Assembly (NCBI GenBank): GCA_044892525.1
Contig: CM097885.1
Location: 21,764,001-21,828,000 of the forward strand
Origin: Schmidtea polychroa
Lineage: Eukaryota
DNA length: 64,000 bases
Direction of reading: 5' to 3'
The notes under the pieces were generated by a model. It ran no database searches and was not told the origin of the DNA. It saw nothing but the letters and a program-made list of their open reading frames with translations. The translations under genes were made by a program, and so were the position numbers. Below, piece by piece: positions 9,370 to 64,000 of this stretch (positions are counted from its first letter, which is position 1; each line of letters opens with the position of its first letter).

Positions 9370-12300
9370 TCATCGACAATAATTATCATCTGCTGGATCA
9401 TGGAAATCATCTGTATCATCTGCTGAGATAGCTTCCGTTGAATCTATAAATATATCGGTGTCACCGCCCCTATAATGGCCATATGCCAAACTTTGATTTT
9501 TATCCACACAATTTCGCTTATCATCTCTACATGTCAAGGCTCTTTTATTATTTTTAATACTAAAAAGTTGGTGATTTTTTGACGTTATTCTAAACTGAGG
9601 GACTGTGTATATTTTATCATTTAAATAACAATCTAGATACGACTGATGTGTTAGTCCAGTATCTTTCATACTTATCTCCTTAGCGTTCATACTTTCCTCG
9701 ACACCCATCAAACTGTAACATTTAGGTCTCAAGAACACCCAATCTTTATATAATAACCCTTTATTCTCGTCTTTGAATTTACCAATGACAGAATCAAGGT
9801 TCCTACTATATAAAGGATGATTTGGGTCATAATTCGAAGTATCTAATAATTGATCTCTAATCATCGCAGGTAAAAGAATGTTAAGACTACAATGTTTAAT
9901 TTCCAAGAAGAAGGAATCTGTGTCTCCAGCAACGATATTAATTTCGCAGTTGAATTCGTCGCGATATTTTTGCAACTCTTCATACTGCAGCTGGTACATC
10001 CTGAGTTTGGATAAATCAAGTACGGTTTGACCAATGTAACTAGGTCTATTCAAACACACTATGTCCTTCCTCAATAAAACCGAAATCAAGTCATCATCGA
10101 TTTTCGTGGATTTACGAAAAGTCGGTTTCGAACAGAATGTTAATAATCTCTGTGAAGAATTACACAGACGTAAATTAATACGTTTTTTAAGATTTTCAAC
10201 AGTCTTGCCGTAAAGACTGTTGTTTAATAATTTATAAAAATTTTTATCGAGTTTATTTGTCGACGCTGCTCGTAACGCCGTATTTGTGTAAATATAATTT
10301 TTGAAAATTTTATCTTGTTTAAATTTAATTGCTCTATGTGTTTTTGATATTTTAACACCTAATTTAATAAATATTTGTAGAAGCCTCCAATGAAGAACAT
10401 AGTTCCTCTTGGGGCTGTGTGTAAGCAACAGCTTCTCTATTTTCGAACCCGGTACACACATCTTTTCAGCGGCAACGGGAAGATCGTCCAGTTTGTCGTG
10501 AATTGACGTCGGTATTTCTAAATCCACTTCTATGGTATAACCATAATCAAGCAGATCTAAATCTACCGTTGTGCATTCAACAATTATATTATTTAATAAA
10601 TTATCATCAGTAACCCATTCAAAGTCACTGCAAGGTAATGGTTGACTTAAAGCCCAACCGTATAAATTATTTATATCTATGTAAAGCAAAGCGGTATCCG
10701 GGTCTGTTTTTACATAATGTTTAATTACAAAAGTTAGTCCGCCACGGATACCGCCCTCGAAAAAGTTATACATCTCCATATCGGTGAGGAGCTCAATTGG
10801 AGAGTTTAAAGTTAATAAGGCTGAATTCCAAGACATACCTGGAATCCCTAAGAAATTTAATGGCTCTAGTCGGTTATGAGCAATGGACTTAGCTCTAAAT
10901 TGCTGGAAAAAATCGGCTAAAAGGAAAACATCAAGTTTTAAATAAACCATCATGTAATCGAAAAGTGAAGTACATGAAGTTTCAACCCAAATTCGCTGAG
11001 CTGTCTCATATTCAGCGGGAGTCACATCTTTCCAAATAGGAGGTAACTGACGAGTGTTATGTAAAACCTCTAATGAAGTTTCGGCATCATAAGGAAAAAT
11101 CCCCTTTGCAGTTATTATTGTACCCTGAAATTCTGATTCGGTCAAGGGTAAAGATGATAAAGTTTTGACAGCATTATTTAAAGACTCGCTGACAAATTGA
11201 TAAGAGTCTATAAATTTAACAGTTAATGAGTCAATCCTAGCAAAAAGACTAAGGAATTTCTCGCTGGTTAAAGGAATACAACTAATATTCCATGAATGAT
11301 ATTTTTGAAAAGCCAAATTTCAAGATATGATGCAGATCATAACCCTTTAAATTATGAAATACTACAGGAAGGGTATGTCTAATTTGCCTCGACAGATTAC
11401 AAGTTGTACAAGCGGCACCGAGATATAGACCGGTAAAATGATCATGGTCCCTAACTGGACTAACTAAAGGCTTATTGCACAAATAGCATGGTGTGCTGTT
11501 TTCAAACATTAATTGTTGCTCATCTGTAATTATCATTTTCTTTTGATAATTTTTATAATAATAAGGAGTTACAATATATTTCCCTATCATTTCAATTTCA
11601 GTAAGAAATTGATCGACACAATCTAAACCGGTGAACGACTTATAAATTTTTACGCCCGTAAAATTATTAATAAAAAGCATACCGGCAGAAATAGGCAGAT
11701 GACGTTGAAAGTAGTGAGTGTCTTTAGGTAAGATAGCCTCAAAGTCAGCGTAAATAACAAAAGGAGGAGTGACTGTTTTACTCCAATCAGTAAATTCTAA
11801 ATATTTATTTTTAGGCAATGTGTACAAGGTAGTACCAAGCTGATTTTTATCGCAAAGACCCTTATGTCTATTAAAAGCGTCATCATTTCTAAAACCGTTT
11901 AAACATCTAGGGCACCACTGACTACAAATCCTAACAGGAGTGATTGAACTATTCCTACAATTAAGGAATCTATTTAGGTCTGTGATTCCAAGATAATGAT
12001 AATTATCATTCTTTTCAATTAATAATAAATTGATAGGTATGGCTCCTACTATCTTACTCCTGTATATTATATCAATAAAGGGATGTTTCATAACTGCATC
12101 TTCATCGGAAATGTCAATCAAAGCCTTTTCGTTATAAGTAAGAACATTTATACTATAACCTGGATTTTGTTGTTCAAATTTACTTATATTTGATAGTTTC
12201 ATCGGCATATCATTAGGATCAAATTTAATTTCAGAAAGATTGTATGAATTAGGGCGATTTCTATATTGCCTATTTATACTATCATATTTAATAATTGACA

Positions 12301-13260
12301 AGAAACTATACAAAAAACAGAAGTGGTCATTATTAACTACATTAACGAGACAGCTTAAGTTTCATAAAGATTTTGGGGTTTCAATAAAACTTCTACCACT
12401 TAACCGACTTATTTCAGCAAATTTAGTCAGAACAAAGCTTATGTATTCTATTTTATTGATAGTCCAATTACTACCTTTCTCATTAATTTTAATTATTTTT
12501 TCATTTAAACGAGCAATACCTTCGTCAATGAATGTATCGCTCCAAACTCGGGCGGAATTCGAGATTGCAAAAGATTGTAACTCATCATCTTTTATAAATT
12601 CCACCTTTAGACAAAATTGAATTTTACATGATATTTATTTATTTATTAAAATGTCTGGTACAGAGACCGTTTTTAAATCTAAAGACGAAACGTCCATTTT
12701 TAATATAATATGATTATTATTTAAATCACTGGTGACATCTACGACACCATAACCTATTTGATTAATATTATTATAATTATTATTATTACCATTATTATAA
12801 TAAATATTACTACTACTACTACTATTATCAATTTCATCATCACTTATGTTGATTATTTCATCATCACTTATTGTAATTACATCAATAACTTTAGATTTTT
12901 TACTTGGTATTGAATTTATTTTTTCATTATTTTTTCTTTTATTCATATTAATTAGATTATTTATTTGATCATTTAATTTATTTACTTGATCTTTTAGTTT
13001 AGTTATTTCGTTTATATCATTATTATTGGTGTTGTTAGTATTATTGTTGATGATATTATTATTATTATTATTGTTGTTGATATTATTATTATTGTTGTTG
13101 ATATTATTATTATTGCTGTTGATATTATTATTATTGTTGTTGTTGATATTATTATTGCTGTTGATATTATTATTATTATTGTTGATATTATTATTATTAT
13201 TATTGCTGTTGATATTATTATTATTATTGTTGTTGTTGATATTATTATTATTGTTGTTGA

Positions 13261-13303
<43 letters not shown>

Positions 13304-14024
13304 AAACGATTCATATAAGCTATAGAAAAGAGACTTCTTAGAAGGTTTAAATTGTTGGAGATGGAGTCCATGCTTATTATAAAATTCCTTATACGTTATA
13401 ACTTCAATAACCTCACATTTAGGGCATAGAATGTAGGTGACACCGTTATATTTATGACTATAATATCTTTCCATTATATCATCGCAGTCATTATGATATT
13501 GACTATTACAAAAGTTTTGGTATTTCAAACCTATGAAAATATTTTTATCATAAAATGTTTAAAAAATATTAAGATAATTTTAATAATCATTTTTAAAGTT
13601 TAAGATATTTTTCGTAAGATATTATTCAAAATTGTCTTTTAAATAGTATCTTATAAAAAATATTATAAAAAAATATATAATTTAATTCGTTTTCATAAAT
13701 AATTTAATTCATTTTCATAAATAAATAATTCATTTTCTAAAATAGATTTTATTTTCATAAATAATATATAAAAGTTATTAATTATAATGTTCAAAATCAT
13801 CATATTTAATAAATCTTCTTTTCAAAATCATCATAAATAAATAAAGAAATCTTCTTTTCATAAATCTTCTTTTCAAAATCATCATAAATAAATCTTCTTT
13901 TCATGAATAAATCTTCTTTTCATAAATAATCCTTTCAAAATCATCATAAATAAATCTTCTTTTAAAATATCTTCTTTTCATGAATAAATCTTCTTTTCAT
14001 AAGTTTCTTTATAATCTTCTTTTA

Positions 14025-14060
<36 letters not shown>

Positions 14061-14388
14061 ATTGTTTAAAAAACTTAAAAACTTATAACAATAAATAAAT
14101 ACTTACATTTTCGTCCTTTCGAAAGAAATTTTCCAGCATCAGAACCAGCAGAAGTATTTATTACATTTCCATCTAAAAGCATAATAAAAATAATAATGAT
14201 TATAATAGTAAACTATTACCATTTATTCTATTCATGTCTACAGCTTGTCCGTCGATATTCATTTTAATTTGTTGATTAGTACCTAATAATCATATTAAAA
14301 ATAATAAAATAATAAATTTACCATTAATTCCTCCAACGATCTTTCCGTCAACTCTTTGAATATTGTTGTTGTTGTTGTTGTTGTTCAT
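9370..14388 (-). pseudogene. Protein-primed family B DNA polymerase (pPolB) with spliced N-terminal leader, TP-like region, OTU-like and EndoVII/HNH domains; disrupted
   Basis: Motifs VIYADFE, VFHNLKGYD, KGIFPYD, YLKLDV, YIDINNLYG, KLLNNSLYGK, GDTDS, GKFKDE, DDKR; CYLC..RDHDH..CTTCN; NNDHFCF..HY. The four ORF-track pieces join through in-frame TAA (12635-12637), TGA (12362-12364) and a 1-nt frameshift near 11302-11310. Leader exons 14322-14388, 14220-14282, 14107-14172, then 13530 onward. AATAAA at 9353-9348. Confidence 0.9.
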
Positions 14389-14414
14389 GTGTTAAATATT
14401 ATTAATAGATTTTT

Positions 14415-14452
14415 AAAAGTGATGAAAAAATGAAAGTGTAGACTATATAAGA
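14415..14452 (-). promoter_or_regulatory. Candidate Pol II core promoter of pPolB: TATA (TTATATAG) plus Inr-like TCACTT
   Basis: TATATA at 14449-14444, TCACTT about 25 nt downstream, ATG at 14388. Confidence 0.5.
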
Positions 14453-14731
14453 GAGATATTACAGGTTTTATTAACCGAACAATGAAAATAGAGATAGGAT
14501 AGGAAAAGACACTACATGTTTGTTTATACAAACCATTACGAAATAATGACCTTTACAAGTCTTTATTACTCAGTGCTTTGTTACTTTGCACTGTGCATGC
14601 ACTGAACATGTAATAGTATTACATAATATTTTTAAACATAAAATAATAATATTTAACAAATAATAATATTTAACAATATTTAACAAATAATTAAAATAGT
14701 CAACAAATAAAAATCATACAGTATACATTTA

Positions 14732-15143
14732 TTAACCATCAAATTTTTTATACAACAACCATGCCAAACAGTGTTGACCACATGTTTGAGTCAATGGATT
14801 TTGAAACATAGTTTTATTATATACAATAGGTTTCCCAATTGTTTGAAGTTTTGATATCAACAAAGCAGGATAATAGAAACCCATAGGATCGAATACGAAT
14901 ATATTACTAGGTTTCACATATATAGCTATCCAATGTTCTCCACCAAGATGAGACGAATGAGTATTGACGATTATGGCTTGATTATTGCTCAAATAAGGAA
15001 TTTTATCGAGAGGAAAAACACCTACAAATTCATTTCCTAATATTTGTTTTCCAATTCGATTAACCTGAACAGAACTACTTTAATAAAATTAAACAGTATC
15101 AAAAAACTTACTCCATGACAACTTTTTGTGTTTCTGTATACAT
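14732..15143 (-). CDS. Adenain-type (C5) cysteine maturation protease, probably two exons
   Basis: FVGVFPLD, VNTHSSHLGGEHWIA, FDPMG, QNPLTQTCGQHC (His/Asp/Cys/Gln). An ATG is reachable only by removing intron 15075-15111. Stop overlaps AATAAA. Confidence 0.85.
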
Positions 15144-16367
15144 TTATACTAGCACGGTTCTATTTGCAGTAATTTGAACTTCATTTTCAAATACTCCATA
15201 TATTATAACATGTACCGGTTCAGTAATGGCCTTTGCAAACTTAATATCCAGTCGTAAATTTCCGTTTTGTGGTAGTTGACTCTGATTTAAATCAAAATCG
15301 GGAGCTAAAACAAATGTGAAAAATGGATATTTGCTTTTAAATTCTTCTAGAGTTATTCCACAATTCAAGTTTTTATCTAAGTAACCCAGATTTTTAACAA
15401 TACTCTGCATATATGTCGCACAGTAATTATCGCTTTCGAAATCTTGAGTATATGTTTCTCTATAATCAGTATTTTTCGACAAAGTCAATGAAGTAACACC
15501 AAAATTTTTGAAAATTGAGCTGGAAGCAGTATAAGATCCATTATATTGCGTTTCACTTTGAAATGTTACCAGAATAAAATTAGGCATTCTTCTGTCACCA
15601 AATATTTGTTCTTTATAGAATGATGAAGCACCTTTAGCAATAGCAAATTGTACAATTTCCTTTGTTTTTAAAGGATAAATTGCATGTTTTGAATTAAGAC
15701 CCAATTGATGACCAGGTAATACTGACGGGTCTACTCGAACTCTTCTCACCAATAATTTTGCATCAACTAATTGCCATATTGGTGCACCAGTAGCACTAGT
15801 AAGAGATAATGCAGAATCGGACCTTTTCAATCTAATATGTATATTAACTCCTGGTAGTAAATATTTCGGTTGATCCATAAAATCAAGTTGTAATGATGAG
15901 CACATAGTGAATACTTTTGAACCTTTAACCCACTTTTTTCTTTCATCATCTGTTGCTGCATAACCCATAGGTGTAAGACAGGTATCTTTAGTATCGGAAT
16001 TGTAATTTAAAATAGTTTCTATCAAAGCCTTGTGAATGAATGTATTATTTCCGCCCTCAATCTTGATATTATTAAATCCCAACACTGCATCTTTAAACAG
16101 AGTATGAAACAGGAAATTGTTTGGTAATACATCTGCATTGGCATCCAAAACTTTTCTATCTTTATCTACAACTTTGATCTGAACAGTCAATAAAGTATCG
16201 TTCAAATCTAAATATTCAGTTTGCGAACCATTAATATAAAACTCGATATCATTTCTACTATCAGTAATCGAATTCATAGGAAAAACTTCTTCAAATGCTC
16301 CAAATTCTATTACAGCCTGGGGCGATGGTCTATCAAATATACATAATTCGGATTTACCACAAATCAT
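15144..16367 (-). CDS. Polinton major capsid protein (double jelly-roll, hexon-like), 407 aa, intact
   Basis: KSELCIF..P..Q, IEFYING..EYLDL..TLL, DF..QPKYLLPGV, GNLRLDIKF are typical of Polinton MCP. Confidence 0.9.
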   Translation of the reverse strand: MICGKSELCIFDRPSPQAVIEFGAFEEVFPMNSITDSRNDIEFYINGSQTEYLDLNDTLLTVQIKVVDKDRKVLDANADVLPNNFLFHTLFKDAVLGFNNIKIEGGNNTFIHKALIETILNYNSDTKDTCLTPMGYAATDDERKKWVKGSKVFTMCSSLQLDFMDQPKYLLPGVNIHIRLKRSDSALSLTSATGAPIWQLVDAKLLVRRVRVDPSVLPGHQLGLNSKHAIYPLKTKEIVQFAIAKGASSFYKEQIFGDRRMPNFILVTFQSETQYNGSYTASSSIFKNFGVTSLTLSKNTDYRETYTQDFESDNYCATYMQSIVKNLGYLDKNLNCGITLEEFKSKYPFFTFVLAPDFDLNQSQLPQNGNLRLDIKFAKAITEPVHVIIYGVFENEVQITANRTVLV

Positions 16368-16658
16368 TTTGCAAATATAGTTCCATGTCCTTTCATTCGT
16401 TTGTTTATACGTGATATTCCATGTCCTTTACGTTTTGGAGCTGGGGCTGGAGGCGTATCTTTTTGAAACATACCAGCAACTCCAGGTAGAACCTTACCTA
16501 ATTCAGCTAAAGCATTTGTTTTTGGGGATGGTAATATTTTCTGTTCATTCATAATCACATCTTTTGCAGTTTTCATACCAAAACTAACCAATAAAATATG
16601 GTAATTCACCGCCAGATTGGCTATCACTATTCATACTAATAATATCGGAATTAGCCAT
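16364..16658 (-). pseudogene. Small basic core protein with protease cleavage motifs, frameshifted or internally deleted
   Basis: ATG at 16658 gives MANSDIISMNSDSQSGGELPYFIG*. A different frame continues FGMKTAKDV...KRKGHG...MKGHGTIFAK*. Confidence 0.7.
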
Positions 16659-17663
16659 CTACTTTACGAAAATGTAGTGTCAAATGAGTTTTTGAGTCTT
16701 TTGGGAAGTTTATAAGTTTTCCACTATCGTCACGAATATTTATTTCTATATTGTTTATACATGAGCTTGAAATTGGTAAATACATGGGATTATCTATATT
16801 TATATTGACAACTTCATCATGTTCATATTTTCCAATCCACACCGATTTCAATAGAGGAACACTGGAATCACCAACAATTATAGGCTTAATAATATTAGTA
16901 TATATGAACATTTGTTGATGATGTTCAAGTATTCTTGGTTTACGTATACCAGCCGATTTTTCCCGATATTGCTGCTTCTCTAATCCAAGTGTATTTGTCA
17001 AATTTTTATCAAATGTAACTTCGCAAATATCATCATTCAAACTGAATGTAAACATCAAATCTTTCACAATGTCCAAACTTTTAAATATGTGTGAACAATT
17101 GTACTTTAAATATTTAAGTAATACATCAAGTTTATCAATATATAATTCGTCAGCGAAGGTGAATGATTCTTCAACTTCATTATTATACGACACTGATATT
17201 TTGATTTCTTCTCTCATTACACTGTTTGCTTCAAATAGATCAAAGCGTAATAAATATTCTGTTTCCATAACTTCATTTTTCAACTTATTGCAGCCCATTC
17301 GTCTGGCATCTTCAATATATTCGAATGTTATTGTAAATGGTTTAAAATCACAACTGATATTTAATCCATCCTTGTAAAACATAGAGCAATGCGGATCTAA
17401 TATTTGATTCGGAATATGATATGTTTTATCATAATTACTGATAATAAAGATACCACTACATGTTTTCATAGCATTCCTTTTGAAATCAATCTTACATTGA
17501 CTATAAAATGGGAATGTATTGTACACGAATGTAAAATCTTGCAGTGCAACTTCCCAGTCACCATTTAAAGAAATCGGATTCTGGAGATTGACCATGAATT
17601 TACTGGCTTGATTATCTGGATGAATAAGCGGGCAACTATTGCTTGGTAAAATAGTATAAAAAT

Positions 17664-17667
<4 letters not shown>
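16651..17667 (-). CDS. Polinton minor capsid protein (penton); start probably GTG at 17667 (mutated ATGA overlap) or upstream ATGs at 17694/17718
   Basis: FYTILPSNS..N..SKF..L..L.GDWEVAL; IYTNII..VGDSSVPLL; PMYLPI..IEINIRD.SG..INF..LTLHF. Confidence 0.85.
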
Positions 17668-18393
<726 letters not shown>

Positions 18394-57109: not shown

Positions 57110-57761
57110 AACATAAATGGGATGTAGGCAAAATGAATTTTGTAAAACATTGAATATTAACCAAAAGTGAATATATTGTTATTAATCCTATGTGCTAAAT
57201 ATTTCATCTAATTGAGAAAATTGGAAAAAAATATTAAAGATATTGAGGAAAACGGAATAATAAGTGAATGTGAGTCTCCTTGGAACTGACCTTTAGTGTG
57301 TTTAAAAAAAAGATGTTTAGATTTTAGAGCGTTAAATAGGATGATAGAAAGACTAATATTTTCAATTCTGAATACTCAACAAATATTAGATATTTTGTAT
57401 GACGCCGAATATTTAATCACTCTTGATTTAGGAAATACTTATTATCAAGTGAAGCTACAAGATAAATTTAGATTAAAAGCAGCATTTTTCACAAATAATA
57501 CTCAATATTGTTTTAAGCGTGTGCCTTTTTTTGGCATTGCAGCTGCGCCTACAACATTTCAAAAGTCATGAATAGAGCATTATGACTATCGAATTGAAAA
57601 TAAGATGTTGTTTATCTTGATGAGCATTAATATTTTTATCTTCTTTGTAAGAGCACTATAAGATAATTGGTAAAGTATTTCAGAGAATAAGTGATTCTGG
57701 GTTAAAGATAAGTCCAGAAAGATGTTATTTTATTAAAAAGCAGATAAAATGTTTAGGACAT
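57110..57761 (+). mobile_element. Gypsy RT remnant, cut by the LTR insertion
   Basis: GIISECESPWN, CLDFRALN, TLDLGNTYYQV, VVYLD, GLKISPERC..IKCLGH. Confidence 0.8.
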
Positions 57762-58767
57762 TGTTAGGTTGGTAAGTGGGTCGTGCGACTAACACACACT
57801 CTTTTGATCTGACTCCAAAGATTTATGTTCAAAAATGAGAACCCAACACTATTTGGTACGACAATTTATTCATGTGACTTTTATAGATACAAATATTATT
57901 TACAAAATAACAATAAAACTTGCTACCAAAAAACTTGTCGCAATTAAGAAAAGGTATCGGTTGTACAAAGCGTTCTCAGGTATTTCAAGGACGGCGAGTG
58001 CAGGATCTTAATTGATCGACAGCACCGCTCAACAATGACAGATAAAAGACAAGGGATGCCCGAAATTTAACACGATCTCTTACTACCCAGAATTTAGTAG
58101 TAACGTTTCCTAGATAACCTACCCTTTGCTATTTCAAATGGATTTACAAGCAAAATAGTTCCCCTAGAAAACTGATGCTTATTCCCAGTTATAATTTAAA
58201 CCTTACTAAAACTGTTACAATTGGTCTATCAAATACTTGATAACTAAATTCTATTTTTTTGAAAATATGGTTTTCGATTATCTTATGGTACTTATCGATA
58301 GCAAATGTTAATACCTTTTGATTATTTTGTTTTTATTTTGAACAATCTGCAAACAGTCTTGGCTCTCTTTCCAAAAATATAATAATAATAATTCTGACAA
58401 TTATAATTTCCAAGATTTGCTTCGAATTGACTATTGCTAATTAGATTTCCCTGGGATTTTACCTGTGATAGTTGTGACTAATTACTATATATAATTGCTC
58501 TCTAAAATAATTCTAAGCTGTTTTTAATCGTCCGTCTCTCCGAGAATTCTATTCTTTTTATATTAAATTTTAAAATTAAAAGTTCAATAAAAATTACTAT
58601 TTTTATTTTTTATTATTGTTGGGGTTACACCTCGGCTGACTACTCTACCATATTGTCTGGTCTAAGGGTTGATTGTCCATCTCGAATAAAATGTGCCGCC
58701 GCTTTGTCAACCTGGAGTGAAACCTTACATAACTTTCTTCCAGCATAGTGCCCGTGAATTACTTCAC

Positions 58768-58885
58768 GTTGGTACTGCACCATGCAGGCGAGACGCCAGC
58801 AAGCAGGTGAGCTTCTGCCTTAAAACTACTCCTTGCTGAGGCCTCGACTTCCCATTCCTGACTGCCGATAGAAGGGCTTACGTCC
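58768..58885 (-). ncRNA. Putative structured cis-acting RNA element, copy B, containing a 5' splice-site consensus (AC|GTAAGC at 58881)
   Basis: Same four blocks as 3250-3363; stems TCAGCAAG/CTTGCTGG and GAGGC/GTCTC. Confidence 0.55.
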
Positions 58886-59114
58886 ATTTCATTACACCAC
58901 CGGTTGCCAGAATTCCACGAGAATAAATCGGGGATTATTCGTTAACTCTCGAAGACGCTATATTCAACTTATTTAATTAAAATCTGACAGTTTATAAACG
59001 GAAGTAAACGACGAAATTTATTAGTATTCAATATTAATACACAAGGAGTTAATCGTACACATCACGAGTATTCGTGGAGAAAAAGAAATGTCACAATAAA
59101 TGCGATACGACTTC

Positions 59115-59882
59115 CTAACGGACTTCATGAATCTCATGTTCCCATTCGGTGTCGGCGAGCAACTCGTCCAGATCAAAGAATTCGGAGGCACTTTCCTCCC
59201 ATGTCACGCCAGCCGCCGAGATGATGCGCGCTGGGGCCCCTGTTGTCAAGTCGATGGACACTCGAGAACTACCACCGCCAGTAGAGTCTTCTATTGACAG
59301 GAGGCTTGGCTTGGTGGACGCACGCTCACGCTGCCTACGCTTTCGTTCCGCACGCGATAATTGTTTGCGCTTGGGTTTGCTCGTAGTTGTGGTGGTTGGA
59401 AGCGCAGTGGGTATAGAGATGTTAGCAGCTGAAGTCTTGCTAGTACCCGGGAGGACAACGTCCGGTCGCCCAGGTGAAAGTTCGGTTTCCACGCAGTCTC
59501 GACACGGTCTCTTGAACGGCGGAGATGGATCCGAGGAAGGGTTGTGATGAGGCGGAAAGATGTTATCGGCCTCTTTGATAGGAATCTGCACTATTTTTCG
59601 GGTTGTAGCCGCCTGCACGTAGACTTTGTGCAGTGCCTCTGACTGTTCTTTGATGAGACTTCTTTGGGCACGGCTCTCAGATATTAGCGCGTCCCGGCAA
59701 TGCTCGCTACGATCGAGCTTCTTTTGGATCTCTTTCATCCGAGCGGGACTAAACCATGTCCCTTCTAGCTCATCTATCTTCCTTTTGTAACGTCCAATCT
59801 GGGTTTGCAGATCTTTGATGATGGCGTTTTTATCCGCACAAGAGAAGCACGGACGTAACGCAGGTTTGGTAGTTGGTATCAT
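59115..59882 (-). CDS. LTR-encoded hypothetical protein, 255 aa (CxxC, coiled coil, Arg-rich motif, acidic tail)
   Basis: Uninterrupted GC-rich ORF; ATG at 59882 preceded by acceptor-like TTCTTTATAG; AATAAA about 95 nt after the stop. Confidence 0.7.
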   Translation of the reverse strand: MIPTTKPALRPCFSCADKNAIIKDLQTQIGRYKRKIDELEGTWFSPARMKEIQKKLDRSEHCRDALISESRAQRSLIKEQSEALHKVYVQAATTRKIVQIPIKEADNIFPPHHNPSSDPSPPFKRPCRDCVETELSPGRPDVVLPGTSKTSAANISIPTALPTTTTTSKPKRKQLSRAERKRRQRERASTKPSLLSIEDSTGGGSSRVSIDLTTGAPARIISAAGVTWEESASEFFDLDELLADTEWEHEIHEVR

Positions 59883-60637
59883 GCTCGCTATAAAGAATGA
59901 GGTTAAGACGTAATATGTACATGGTTGAAGAAAATACGTGGAATACGAATAATCGACTGCCCGTGGATATCCAGCCATCAAACAACAATGAATGTCCTTA
60001 CTCGTCGATTTAGATTATGTACAAAATTACTTAATTCCATTAAATAACACTAGGTTGACGGAATACAATTCTTTACCTAATCGAACTATACTGATTTGAC
60101 GAATGCAATTCGATTAATACAGGTTCAGGGGTACCTTTACAAACCCTAAAATTTTCCTATTGACCTAGAATTTCATTTATGATCAAAATTTACGAGACCT
60201 CGACGCTAACAACCTTTCCAATGCTCGTGACCCTGTCACCCACTCGCACAACCTTATATGTGATAGTTTAAAGATTGACGATATTTGGAAAATTATTAGA
60301 AATAATGGTAATATTATGTTGTCTAATAAAAACTTCGATACATTACTTATCGCGCTTTGTTAAAATTTTATATGATTATTTATGTGGTCTGCTAAATGAG
60401 ATTATTAATATTACCTAACGTCTAATTTTAAATATTTCTAATTATCTAAAATCTAAATAATTTATAATTAATTTAAAATTCCTATTGGTGATTAAAAGTG
60501 AACTTATCAATATTACCTAAAAATCTAATTTGAATTATTCTAATATTCAAACATCAATACTTTATAATTAATTGAAAATTTCTATTGGTGATCGGAAATG
60601 GTTATAATTGTCCGTGATTATCTCATGATTAATCTAG

Positions 60638-63600
60638 TAGGGTGGAGTGAAAATTTTTTTTTCTTAATATCTTGTTTGGATAGCTATAAAAACTTGGTAA
60701 CACATGCAATTAGTAATGTGGCAAACAATTAGACAATTTAAAGCATATCTTGAGGTTCCACAATTGACCTAAAGTATAGGCATATTTCGATAAAAAAGCA
60801 ATAATCTTTAAAAAAAACATTTTTTTATAAGTAACATATTTATGTTATGGTTTAACTTTTTAACAGTCTGTACATAACATTACAAGTAATAAGAACCATA
60901 TCTGTGAAGGGAAACCACATGCAAACTGTCTAACATGTTTTTATAACTACAAATGATGTTGGGCTTTGGTGTCCAGTTTTGGCATTTTCGATCTCGATTC
61001 CAAGCGTGCTCTAATGAATCCGTCGCGTTTTTCTGGACCACACACCATTTCGGATGCTTCTGTCACTAGCTTGATATGTCTCTCTACTGCCTGGGTTTGA
61101 CAAGGATAGCGGGCGAAATCCAGTCTTGGCGTTTCTTCTTCCCGGATCATGGTTAACAAAGTATCTTCGTCAATGTCCACTACGATTGGAGGCTCTGTGA
61201 TCGGAGTTTTCTGCCAATCGATCATGTCTATGTAGCTAGTAGCTTCAAAGTTGATTACTGGCACGCAGAAAGATCTAACTGAAGTCGTACGTTTCTGCTT
61301 TCTGGATTTCAGTATGCGTCGCAGAGCTAACTCGCGTATATCTGATCTTTCATCGGTAAGCATCGCAAGCAACAGATTTTCTGGATGACTAAAGAATGCG
61401 TTGCGTTGAATTACCGGGTCAACAACTTTCTTCAGCTCGTCTGTGAGGTAGCGTGATTTCAGTATCGTACTGTGGACATGTCAAGCGCCGTCTTTACACG
61501 AAGGGGTATTCTTTATTTCAAACCATGCAGGTGCATAAACTGTTACGATAAAGGTAGCAAGCGTCTTTAGTTCATCCGACGGGCTTCTTGTGGCAACATA
61601 CAGACGTAGTATGCGATTAGCCGTGGTTAACCATCTCGAATGGTTGATAAGACCAGGATTGCGAAGTGAATGGTCGACAGGACAAATACCAACACTTACA
61701 GCAGTACACAAATCGAACAGGTATTTCTGATCTGTACTTAAATCGTCGGAATTTGCACTTGACGGTAGAACACAGTTTATCGGCATGTAGTCAACGATGG
61801 GAAGCTTCTCACAATTCAACAATGACTTTCCAATGGGACCAGAAAATCCTTTTGGACCATTGGTAGGTCCATCAAGATACTGAAACAAATGTCTTAACGG
61901 TAATTCGTTTGCATGCAACTGACATACGAACCACTGTAGTGGTCTGTGTAACGTCACTTCAAGTAATCGAATGATGCCTCCTCGAATGCCCGTATTAGTG
62001 GCTGTCCCATCACAACCTATTGCTTTTATGCCACTCGTGTCAACATTTCTTTTATTCAAATATGCAATCAACTCAGCCGTGATAACTTTGCTTGACCCTG
62101 CAGTTGGTGTAATGTGACCGAAATATGTAGCTCCTGGTTCGGCTATAATCGATATATGTTCTTCAGTTATTATTTTCCGATGAAATTTACCATCGCATTC
62201 TTTAATTTGGGTCATTGTATTGTCTTTTCTGCCGTCAAAATATAACCCAGTGATTGTGTTACTGACTTCGGCACATAATGCGCCACGCTTATTACAACGT
62301 TCTCGACGCACTTTACTTCTGTCAATCACTTTAGAAACATCATGTTCGTGGATTATTCCAACATCTTGAAGAACAGCACTGGCGATTCCTGCTGCCGCCC
62401 TGTCGGATACGCCATGTCGATCACACGCTAAAGCCAACGACGGTAGCTTAACTCTCATCTGCTTGTCATTCAATTTTCGCTGTTGTTTAATTTGGCTTAT
62501 ACAATCGTCATCAGAGTCATCATCGCCGGTATCCATTTCCTCTTCCATTCCAGAAATCTCGTCACAGACATCCGACTGTTTATCACCGATGTCATCAATG
62601 GCAGATTTGGTACACATCTGCCTCTGTGTCGACTCTTTACGGATATACCGCTTTTGTAATCTACTGGATTCAACCTCATCAACTCCAGCTATGATCATAC
62701 TGCGTGAACCCCGCTGATCTTCTAGAAAGTCACGTTCAATTGTGGGTATCTTTCTTGACTTCTCACAGTGACACTGAGACATACAAGAGCACTTGCAGGA
62801 GCAAATGTCAAAGAGTTTAATCGATTCATCTTTAAACTGCGATATTTTCTCTCTGTATGGTTCTGAGTCCTTCCTAGATTTATACGGCTTCAGCAATTTC
62901 ATGAACGTCTTGTGGTACACGTTCAACATTTCATGAACACGGCGGTAGCTTACATGTGGTATGGAAGCTTTGTCCCATATTTGTTCTACTTTCATTGACA
63001 CTGTTTCTGCCACGTTGCGATGTGAAGGATCTTTATTGTTCAATTCGCATTTCAGTCTCTGCTTTGTCAGGTTGTAGAATTTCATAACATCTGCATAAGT
63101 CGGTAGTTGATTGTCGGGCATCTCGGATGGACCACCAAAGATGACACAAGACACTTTCTTTCTGGTTACAGCCATTGCAACTCTAAAAAGGAAAACCAGA
63201 GGCATTTTAAATCCATATTATTTAAATGCCATCAATGACTTCAATAATATGTTATAATATTACCTCTTATAATGAAGTATCGTAGTGGAGTAATTATTTA
63301 TCACTAACAATACTACATACAGCGATTCAAAAAAAATACAATGTTATGCAATATGTATGCAATAATCCGTCTGAATTGACTCTAGAAACAGGAAGTGCAG
63401 CGTGTGAATGCGTAGAAAAGTGAACTAATAATGATCTTTTAGTTAACAGTAAGTAACGATAACGTATTAGTGGAAGCAAAAAGTTGCCAATTCCTTGTAA
63501 TGAAAAGAACACCGGATAGCAAATACATTATCGTTTTCTTATCAATGGTTACATTTTAAAGTTGGTTGTGGAACCTCAAGACATTATTTAAATTATTGTT

Positions 63601-63703
63601 TTTCTTTACAGAGTACTTCATTTGACCTCATAGCAAGTTTTTATAACTATCCAAAGTCTACTAAGTCAAAAAATTTTTTTTCGGTCATTTTCACTCCACC
63701 CTA
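60638..63703 (-). mobile_element. Full-length hATm-type DNA transposon
   Basis: TIR TAGGGTGGAGTGAAAA at both ends; perfect 9-bp TSD TTAATCTAG (60629-60637, 63704-63712). Confidence 0.92.
60947..63175 (-). pseudogene. hATm transposase, about 742 codons, one in-frame TGA at 61481-61483
   Basis: YFDGRKD, GCDGTATNTG, WFVCQLHANELPLRHL, HSRWLTTANR, TQAVER. The two ORF-track pieces are in the same frame. Confidence 0.9.
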
Positions 63704-64000
63704 TTAATCTAGGTCACATCGTTATCTAGTGATATATGTGAAGCGATAGCCTGAGTACAATCGTCTCAGACCAGTTGCTATCCATTCGTCATTATCTCAT
63801 AGAGAGGAAAGATTATTATCAATATGGCATATTGTCGAGTATGTCGCTGAAGATATTTACCTGAGGATTTACTCATGCCTCTCATGTGAATGTTCTCCAT
63901 GCCGGGGTGTTATATGTATGCGTTATGTGAACTCTCGTATGTTTGCCGTATCAATGTGAATTTGCGTGTGGTTGTTTATCACTTGAAATGAATTTTGGAT

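Follow-up and report, generated by a model that had tools for sequence, protein, structure and literature searches.

A protein gene under purifying selection in the long terminal repeats of giant Burro-type elements of Schmidtea polychroa, with a possible Rev-like role

Long terminal repeats (LTRs) are usually read as non-coding control sequence. Retroviral ORFs that overlap the LTR are MMTV sag and HIV nef; both are located in U3, on the 5' side of the promoter, and it is the 3' LTR copy that is expressed. Complex retroviruses also encode Rev-like proteins (HIV Rev, HTLV/BLV Rex, MMTV Rem and JSRV Rej), which carry a CRM1 export signal according to parts of PMC3856414, where Tas is named among the retroviral transactivators. 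The nearest invertebrate case appears to be sORF1 of the MDG1 group (Drosophila 412, mdg1, Stalker and Blood), which sections of PMC11952523 describe as a small selected accessory gene standing first in the transcription unit, upstream of gag; its transcripts are reported to be unspliced, and its product of about 110 aa has a predicted helix-turn-helix. According to the same sections, the sORF1 RNA is short and ends at a poly(A) site just after the gene, and the protein is nuclear and thought to act early. The Burro/GYPSM1 elements of planarians, giant and gypsy-like, were described in PMC6431247. No LTR gene of Burro was described in the literature searched, and sections of PMC8532177 and PMC11410931 do not mention one; its annotation in Grohme 2018, Lee 2026, figures or supplements is possible.

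In this study, we analyzed an open reading frame (ORF) in a 64-kb stretch of Schmidtea polychroa DNA, hereafter the window, and found protein genes under selection in at least three LTR types. The LTR family of the window copy is called family A, and families B and C are two further, Burro1-like LTR types. Relatives were sought in the same genome (781 Mb). The coordinates of the features are collected in Table 1.

Table 1. Positions of the LTR gene, its protein motifs and the surrounding signals (a slash marks a predicted splice cut)
Feature	Position	Strand	Remarks
LTR gene, 255 aa	59115..59882	-	CxxC, coiled coil (aa ~15-98), Pro-rich part with second CxxC
Basic helix and acidic-aromatic tail of LTR gene	aa 169-188; aa 228-248	-	Sequence, AlphaFold model
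EGTWFSP kink between two helices	59745..59765	-	Common to family B homologue
Arg/Lys-rich motif	59322..59378	-	K-x-K-R-K-x-L-x-R...R best kept across three LTR types
Acidic-aromatic tail	59139..59201	-	Family A only; omega 0.04 (aa 209-248)
Twin hairpin	Window-equivalent 64902 to about 64770	-	Predicted long intron of family A LTR
Structured 3' block, predicted U5/genomic leader	58617..58885	-	Covaries across A, B, C
Invariant AGTACCAA bulge on stem	58776-58769	-	Within U5 block
Predicted splice acceptor	59888..59900	-	YAG 5 nt before ATG
Second donor NNA/GTAAG	GT at window-equivalent 65148	-	Predicted partner of 59888 acceptor
CCAAT box	Window-equivalent 65436	-	LTR part outside window
TATA	Window-equivalent 65409	-	LTR part outside window
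AATAAA, then GT/T-rich tract	59017..59022	-	Predicted polyadenylation signal, end of R
Solo LTR, window copy	58617..64000 in window, on to window-equivalent 65766	-	About 4.1 kb without inserted transposon
DNA transposon inside LTR	60638..63703	-	TAGGGTG termini, 9-bp duplication, 574-aa ORF; foreign to element

The LTR and its host element

The first-pass annotation of the window had placed the ORF in an LTR of 2.45 kb at 57762-60211, with TGTTAG..CTAACA ends. These limits had to be abandoned: none of 42 other matches passes query base 1620, so that 57762-58590 is flank, and the TGTTAG at 57762 was rejected as an LTR end, being unrepeated and directly following a decayed gypsy-type reverse transcriptase fragment (window 57290-57760, +) that it adjoins. 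The expectation that the ORF is carried by an LTR pair was borne out within other limits. Paired LTRs of family A measure about 4.0 kb and have the ends TGTTGGG...CCCCAACA, and in six full-length elements with paired LTRs (98.3-99.98% identical, 25-30 kb apart) every LTR holds the ORF or a damaged copy of it; the element at C3:70694243-70724064, for example, spans 29.8 kb and has LTRs of 3,975 nt. The window copy itself is a solo LTR flanked by a TTAT target duplication and split by a 3.07-kb transposon, and 4-bp target duplications were found at 9 of the solo copies compared. Since the genome holds 240 exact copies of a 38-mer of the family A hairpin described below, against 86 junctions of LTR and primer site, many copies are solo LTRs. 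A gene inside the LTR is consequently present twice per element and in solo LTRs as well, and these could still make protein.

In the internal region a RING gene is followed by a frame of 4,732 codons, after which come RING-TRAF-MATH and three genes of unknown kind. Within the 4,732-codon frame, which consists of three overlapping open stretches, Pfam gave the order Gag, CCHC, env-like fusion domain, PR, RT, RH, IN and ankyrin. RING-TRAF-MATH is a separate gene in family A, and BIR-RING is present in family C; Pfam returned no BIR match among the family A ORFs scanned, and BCL2-like and dUTPase cargo was not seen by Pfam. By the described architecture, we assign the window LTR to a giant Burro-type gypsy element of ~30 kb.

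A primer site, which we take to be of tRNA-Pro type, follows the 5' LTR in family A elements and begins about 7 nt past the LTR. TGATT stands after the 5' LTR and again before the 3' LTR (L029:7322-7345, L032:5313-5342), where no polypurine tract is evident. In 4/5 elements the polyprotein frame extends, open and conserved, over 115 codons ahead of its first ATG, from just after a TAG, and it may be entered by splicing or at a non-ATG start (L095:8500-8844, L022:847-1191). Tandem arrays were also observed, with three LTR-ORF matches evenly spaced (G000:C2:177677k-177733k, 26.2 kb; C4:12790k-12813k, 11.1 kb); these arrays, together with LTRs up to 99.98% identical, point to very recent activity or unequal exchange. 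Another family, young and abundant, measures about 17-24 kb and has LTRs of 0.6-1.1 kb (L130-L131, L135-L137, L145-L147). One long frame of this family includes an env-like fusion domain that shares 35% identity with its counterpart in the giant family, and the ORF profile found no homologue in the short LTRs. Elsewhere in the window, an ORF cluster at 9370-17718 (-) matches protein-primed DNA polymerase B and endonuclease VII and is probably a Polinton/Maverick remnant.

The LTR-encoded protein, its conservation and its relatives

The ORF runs on the minus strand from the ATG at 59882 to the stop at 59115 and falls in the highest-GC 1-kb bin of the window (49%). The coordinates and motifs given for it earlier, namely an intact GC-rich frame of 255 aa with CFSC, a coiled coil, a basic motif and an acidic tail, were all confirmed: CFSC occupies aa 12-15, the Arg-rich stretch KPKRKQLSRAERKRRQRER aa 169-187 and the acidic C-terminal stretch WEESASEFFDLDELLADTEWE aa 228-248. 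The tail contains 11 acidic residues in the last 27, in addition to W, F and L, and presumably resembles acidic activation domains. The AlphaFold model (pLDDT 59, pTM 0.23) has helices at residues 15-42, 46-98 and 177-189, of which the two long ones reach a pLDDT of about 67-92, and is of low confidence elsewhere; the Arg-rich motif is helical in it. In the kink between the two long helices, W is invariant and P nearly invariant in families A, B and C. Another in-frame ATG farther upstream, at 59978, was rejected as the start, because the copies from paired LTRs compared do not share it.

No homologue with known function was found for the protein among the sequence and fold databases searched. 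Pfam had no match to the 255-aa protein, and a set of 5.8 billion proteins yielded no homologue, whether it was queried with the window protein, with the alignment of the B/C homologues or with the second LTR gene described below. For the LTR protein, HMMER over 1.84 billion representative proteins and a search of PDB sequences (best E 0.14) likewise gave no homologue. A BFVD fold search with the low-confidence model yielded no E below 0.001, and the ESM Atlas returned only unnamed or generic coiled-coil clusters, with delta antigen at 0.78, below the level that counts.

Neutral evolution and absence from other LTR copies had been named as the findings that would speak against a functional ORF, and both were tested. 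Among the best 149 of 6,947 candidates, 143 genomic matches lack an internal stop, a share biased to intact copies because these matches are the best-scored ones; in 47 of the 52 copies examined the ORF is intact (at least 245 aa). On a tree of 23 copies omega was 0.18, and fixing it at 1 (MG model) lowered the log-likelihood from -3971.7 to -4213.4, a cost of 242 units. Pooled over five pairs, omega was 0.05 both for the CxxC with the coiled coil and for the basic motif; in the C-terminal 40 residues it was 0.04, and in the two linkers 0.28-0.37. The ORF is under purifying selection and is found in both LTRs of elements and in solo LTRs. That the ORF is merely incidental to GC-rich or structured sequence, or to an overlapping antisense frame, and yields no useful protein, could be argued from the empty database searches and from a 138-aa antisense frame that overlaps the ORF in the window. 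In seven other copies this antisense frame proved shorter, and the remaining sense frames over the ORF are interrupted by 6-15 stops. Besides omega itself, a dS of up to 1.27 between subfamilies with dN near 0.1, and homologues in other LTR types, also speak against a by-product, so we regard this explanation as already refuted and leave it next to no probability. These comparisons indicate that the window ORF is a real protein gene.

The homologues were reached through a profile of the ORF, which matched a distant frame in the LTR of another giant family (E 2.4e-8), and HHalign supported the relation between the A and B/C LTR proteins (95.7%, E 8.8e-9). The LTRs of B and C are about 5-7 kb long, and one A LTR compared with one B LTR showed no nucleotide match, though the basic motif is common to both. 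The LTR proteins of A, B and C are 20-30% identical, against 88-89% between the RT of B/C and that of family A. What the three types share is a core made of a coiled coil with the W-x-x-P kink and the motif K-x-K-R-K-x-L-x-R...R; both CxxC motifs and the acidic tail are conserved in family A and absent in the B/C homologues. The CxxC and the tail are the features on which the analogy with Tat and VP16 rests, and this analogy finds no support in the B/C homologues.

The LTRs of B and C contain a second gene of 120-123 aa (L174-L210; e.g., L174:5915-6277), about 600-715 nt upstream of the homologous ORF and with its own acceptor and AATAAA; this second gene is lacking in family A LTRs. Its product has a conserved H-x-W-x-x-G-x-D-L-D core, a helix-like stretch and a C-terminal RKRGRPRK, and it is under purifying selection (omega 0.11-0.31); the Pfam AT_hook model matches 5/16 members (best E 0.012). 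The internal regions of B and C are 94-98% identical to each other, and their LTR proteins only about 45% (L021-L040, L095-L098, L211-L216). In the window LTR itself, two subfamily types are combined as a mosaic. It appears that LTR modules have been exchanged.

Transcription signals, splicing and RNA structure

Three blocks of the LTR are conserved (bases 1-396, 836-991 and 2720 to the end). The first ends with a CCAAT and a TATA box, and an exon of ~27 nt with the donor AG/GTAAG follows at a distance of about 30 nt from the latter. These conserved promoter elements and the donors lie 2.1-2.4 kb upstream of the ORF ATG in the same LTR. A TATA box had also been suggested behind the ORF (TTTATAAA, 58998-58991); this word is kept in 4/21 LTRs only, whereas the AATAAA after the ORF is present in 21/21 family A LTRs and at a fixed distance in 26/27 B/C LTRs, which places the ORF downstream, not upstream, of the conserved promoter. 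Lying 3' of the promoter and 5' of the poly(A) signal, the ORF would belong to an R region of roughly 3.2 kb and not to U3, and the positional analogy with sag and nef is lost, as the conserved promoter sits upstream of the ATG. AATAAA also stands ahead of the downstream accessory genes.

In the window LTR, exon 1 is followed by a mini-intron of 46 nt. The donor of exon 1 is present in 23/29 LTRs, and in 21 of these 23, representing five sequence types, exon 1 is identical to the 3' end of the mini-intron; five of the 29 have a single exon-1 copy and one lacks the region. Such an identity would be expected if reverse transcription copies the spliced 5' end here, and slippage between close repeats may be an alternative source of the duplication. 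One element (L025 vs L028) has a 5' LTR exactly without the 54-nt mini-intron and a 3' LTR with it.

The predicted acceptor, TTCTTTATAG, ends at 59888, 5 nt before the ORF ATG, as the first-pass annotation had it, and it proved to be conserved: by inspection, YAG stands 5-10 nt before the ATG in 52/52 copies, across at least five unrelated upstream sequence types, and a strict acceptor-context test was passed by 5/7 ORF ATGs vs 8/308 other LTR ATGs. YAG also precedes the ATG of three internal genes by 1-2 nt. The donor proposed earlier was GAC/GTAAG at 58881, spliced from the 5' LTR to the acceptor in the 3' LTR. We replace this scheme, because conserved donors lie upstream in the same LTR and the 58881 GTAAG is not kept where the block has its counterpart in B and C LTRs. 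The second donor, NNA/GTAAG, occurs once in 25/25 family A LTRs, 231-246 nt before the hairpin. With promoter and donors situated 5' of it in one and the same LTR, the gene probably belongs to R, and its splicing probably involves a single LTR; judged by these signals, its expression by splicing is very likely. A search for intron-less family A LTR copies gave 0 genomic matches to the first-donor or second-donor junction patterns. In one possible RNA run, 51 contigs match the 3' region and LTR, none of them 99% alike; the ORF is not covered, and no joint was seen among the contigs listed; three of the four sequencing runs compared with the 3' region and LTR behave as DNA. Trans-splicing of the host spliced leader was rejected as the source of the start codon, since the spacing to the ATG varies from 5 to 10 nt.

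The homologues in B and C begin with YAG/TG (20/20 B and 12/12 C copies), and 29/30 lack a Met before codon 31; codons 2-28 are nevertheless conserved (pS 0.70, pN 0.10). A leader donor was found in 18/23 B/C LTRs and is preceded by A in 17 of the 18; counted by distinct contexts, as related copies are not independent, A precedes 8/9 leader donors vs 18/53 chance donors. With a leader ending in A/GT and an exon beginning AG/TG, splicing would create an in-frame ATG. The single genomic match to the spliced B/C junction pattern has a genomic ATG at the very codon of the predicted start and was rejected as a spliced copy, being a variant of that kind. In family A, where the ORF has its own ATG, the A before the second donor is invariant too (25/25), and no acceptor needing that A was found there; being unneeded, it may be inherited or reflect a host preference.

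Two structured RNA segments lie on either side of the ORF. The twin hairpin starts about 450 nt after the predicted transcription start, has z scores of -4.5 to -7.2 and is more stable on the sense strand; 5/52 pairs show two-sided changes, amounting to about one event common to four sequences. B and C have their own, different conserved intron block. In the U5 block, 19/39 pairs covary across families A, B and C. The hairpin was also considered as a hammerhead, which was rejected because the core order does not fit and Rfam was empty; Rfam gave nothing in one stretch and three loci.

Possible roles and comparison with known systems

At a probability that we put somewhat short of even, we tentatively favor an LTR gene for which a short spliced RNA is the likely messenger and whose product is likely a nuclear RNA-binding switch favoring the intron-keeping, full-length RNA, as Rev and Rex do. 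Transcription would start about 30 nt after the TATA box, at LTR base ~390, the leader would be spliced over the intron of ~2.1 kb that holds the twin hairpin, and the RNA would be polyadenylated just after the ORF, making the protein the default, first product of the LTR promoter. Genomic RNA would have to retain the long intron, which is present in every full-length LTR examined and missing from no copy found, and to read through the poly(A) signal of the ORF and several internal ones. The coiled coil is predicted to oligomerize and the basic helix to bind the intronic hairpin or the U5 structure, and the bound protein might then promote retention, read-through or export. The conserved core and the order of promoter, donor, acceptor and AATAAA can be read directly from the copies; binding is a prediction. 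A first-made, Arg-rich coiled-coil protein, with structured RNA in an intron that its own mRNA lacks, corresponds to the Rev/Rex layout, and we prefer a Rev-like role because the part common to the three LTR types is the coiled coil and basic helix, not the acidic tail. The earlier proposal of a regulator like those of complex retroviruses therefore remains a fair reading as to an LTR-encoded, selected protein and its likely splicing, and is not supported as to the U3 position, the TATA box and the splice from 5' to 3' LTR.

Several points weigh against the Rev-like role: no export consensus, an A that is invariant also in family A, about one hairpin event, no nucleotide match between an A and a B LTR that nevertheless have the basic motif in common, and no homologue with known function. 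Searched with the consensus classes of CRM1-type export signals, the 23 family A proteins showed none that is conserved (one pattern occurs in 7/23, in a variable linker), and the matches in B/C proteins fall in the coiled coil. Lacking a conserved export-signal consensus, the LTR protein falls outside the Rev family in the definition given in parts of PMC3856414. It may act on retention or read-through instead of export, and the basic motif may be merely a nuclear or nucleolar localization signal.

An activator of the LTR promoter, similar to Tas, Tax or Tat, would use the coiled coil to dimerize and the tail to recruit the transcription machinery, with the basic helix binding DNA or nascent RNA or only importing the protein, and with the AT-hook-like gene filling the role in B and C. 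The strongly constrained acidic-aromatic tail of family A suggests such a function, as does the distribution of the second gene, which is selected and has an AT-hook-like end in B and C and is lacking in family A, where the tail is present; very different LTR modules on internal regions 94-98% identical also fit a target that travels with the LTR. However, the B/C homologues have neither the tail nor the two CxxC motifs, so activation is not the shared function, the hairpin lies about 450 nt after the predicted start, unlike TAR at the 5' end of its transcript, and the first exon varies among five sequence types. We consider this activator somewhat unlikely. A protein that acts on the host, for instance one that counters silencing by piRNA or chromatin or that serves as an adaptor, would match the RING, RING-TRAF-MATH and ankyrin cargo of these elements and the BIR-RING of family C, as well as the far faster divergence of the LTR protein relative to RT, and a host-benefit role of Burro1 is reported second-hand in a section of PMC13465017. 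Selection within families is strongly purifying and not diversifying, however, and the place of the gene as first cistron, flanked by two conserved RNA structures, agrees with a cis-acting circuit; we hold a host-directed role to be distinctly unlikely. Decidedly improbable, in our view, is an RNA chaperone or particle component that would serve packaging or reverse transcription of the 26-kb genome by binding the U5/leader: the covarying U5 block with its invariant bulge and the invariant basic motif would suit it, and capsid proteins have similar basic arms, but Gag already carries CCHC knuckles, a structural protein is needed late and in bulk rather than from a separate first transcript, and Gag, RT, IN and tRNA explain the conservation of U5.

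If the protein does control splicing, read-through or export, this would explain how full length is attained by an RNA of 26 kb that contains numerous poly(A) signals and acceptors, and it would extend Rev/Tat-type logic beyond Retroviridae. More broadly, and on the whole doubtfully, Burro LTRs could be swappable, self-contained modules, each with promoter, spliced leader, kilobase R and response RNAs, a Rev-like switch in all types and, in the Burro1-like types, an AT-hook transactivator together with a splice-built start codon; a two-regulator circuit would then have evolved independently in a gypsy-type element, and solo LTRs would supply regulators in trans.

Compared with described Burro elements, the present ones agree in their LTRs and size of ~30 kb, in a polyprotein of ~4,600-4,700 aa with Gag, CCHC, env-like, PR-RT-RH-IN and ankyrin parts, and in the TRAF/MATH and RING genes, including BIR-RING in family C. 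They differ in that family A has no BIR match in the ORFs scanned, and the section of PMC6431247 on Burro names no LTR protein gene, splicing scheme or kilobase R. With sag, nef, Tat and Tas the LTR gene shares an ORF in LTR sequence, a likely spliced RNA and, in family A, an acidic tail. Unlike sag and nef, it lies downstream of a conserved promoter and upstream of a conserved AATAAA; unlike the Tat system, it has no conserved 5'-end hairpin, and its first exon varies in five types. As for the Rev-like proteins, there is no sequence or fold match and no conserved CRM1 consensus, and the gene is encoded wholly in a Metaviridae-type LTR; the likeness consists in the Arg-rich motif, a predicted oligomerizing helix, a likely spliced mRNA and structured RNA in a predicted intron that would be absent from that mRNA. 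sORF1 resembles the LTR gene in that the latter, too, would be the first accessory gene, on a short RNA predicted to end early at the AATAAA conserved in all three families. Unlike sORF1, which is present as a single copy upstream of gag, the LTR gene sits in both LTRs, has a conserved donor and acceptor and is likely spliced.
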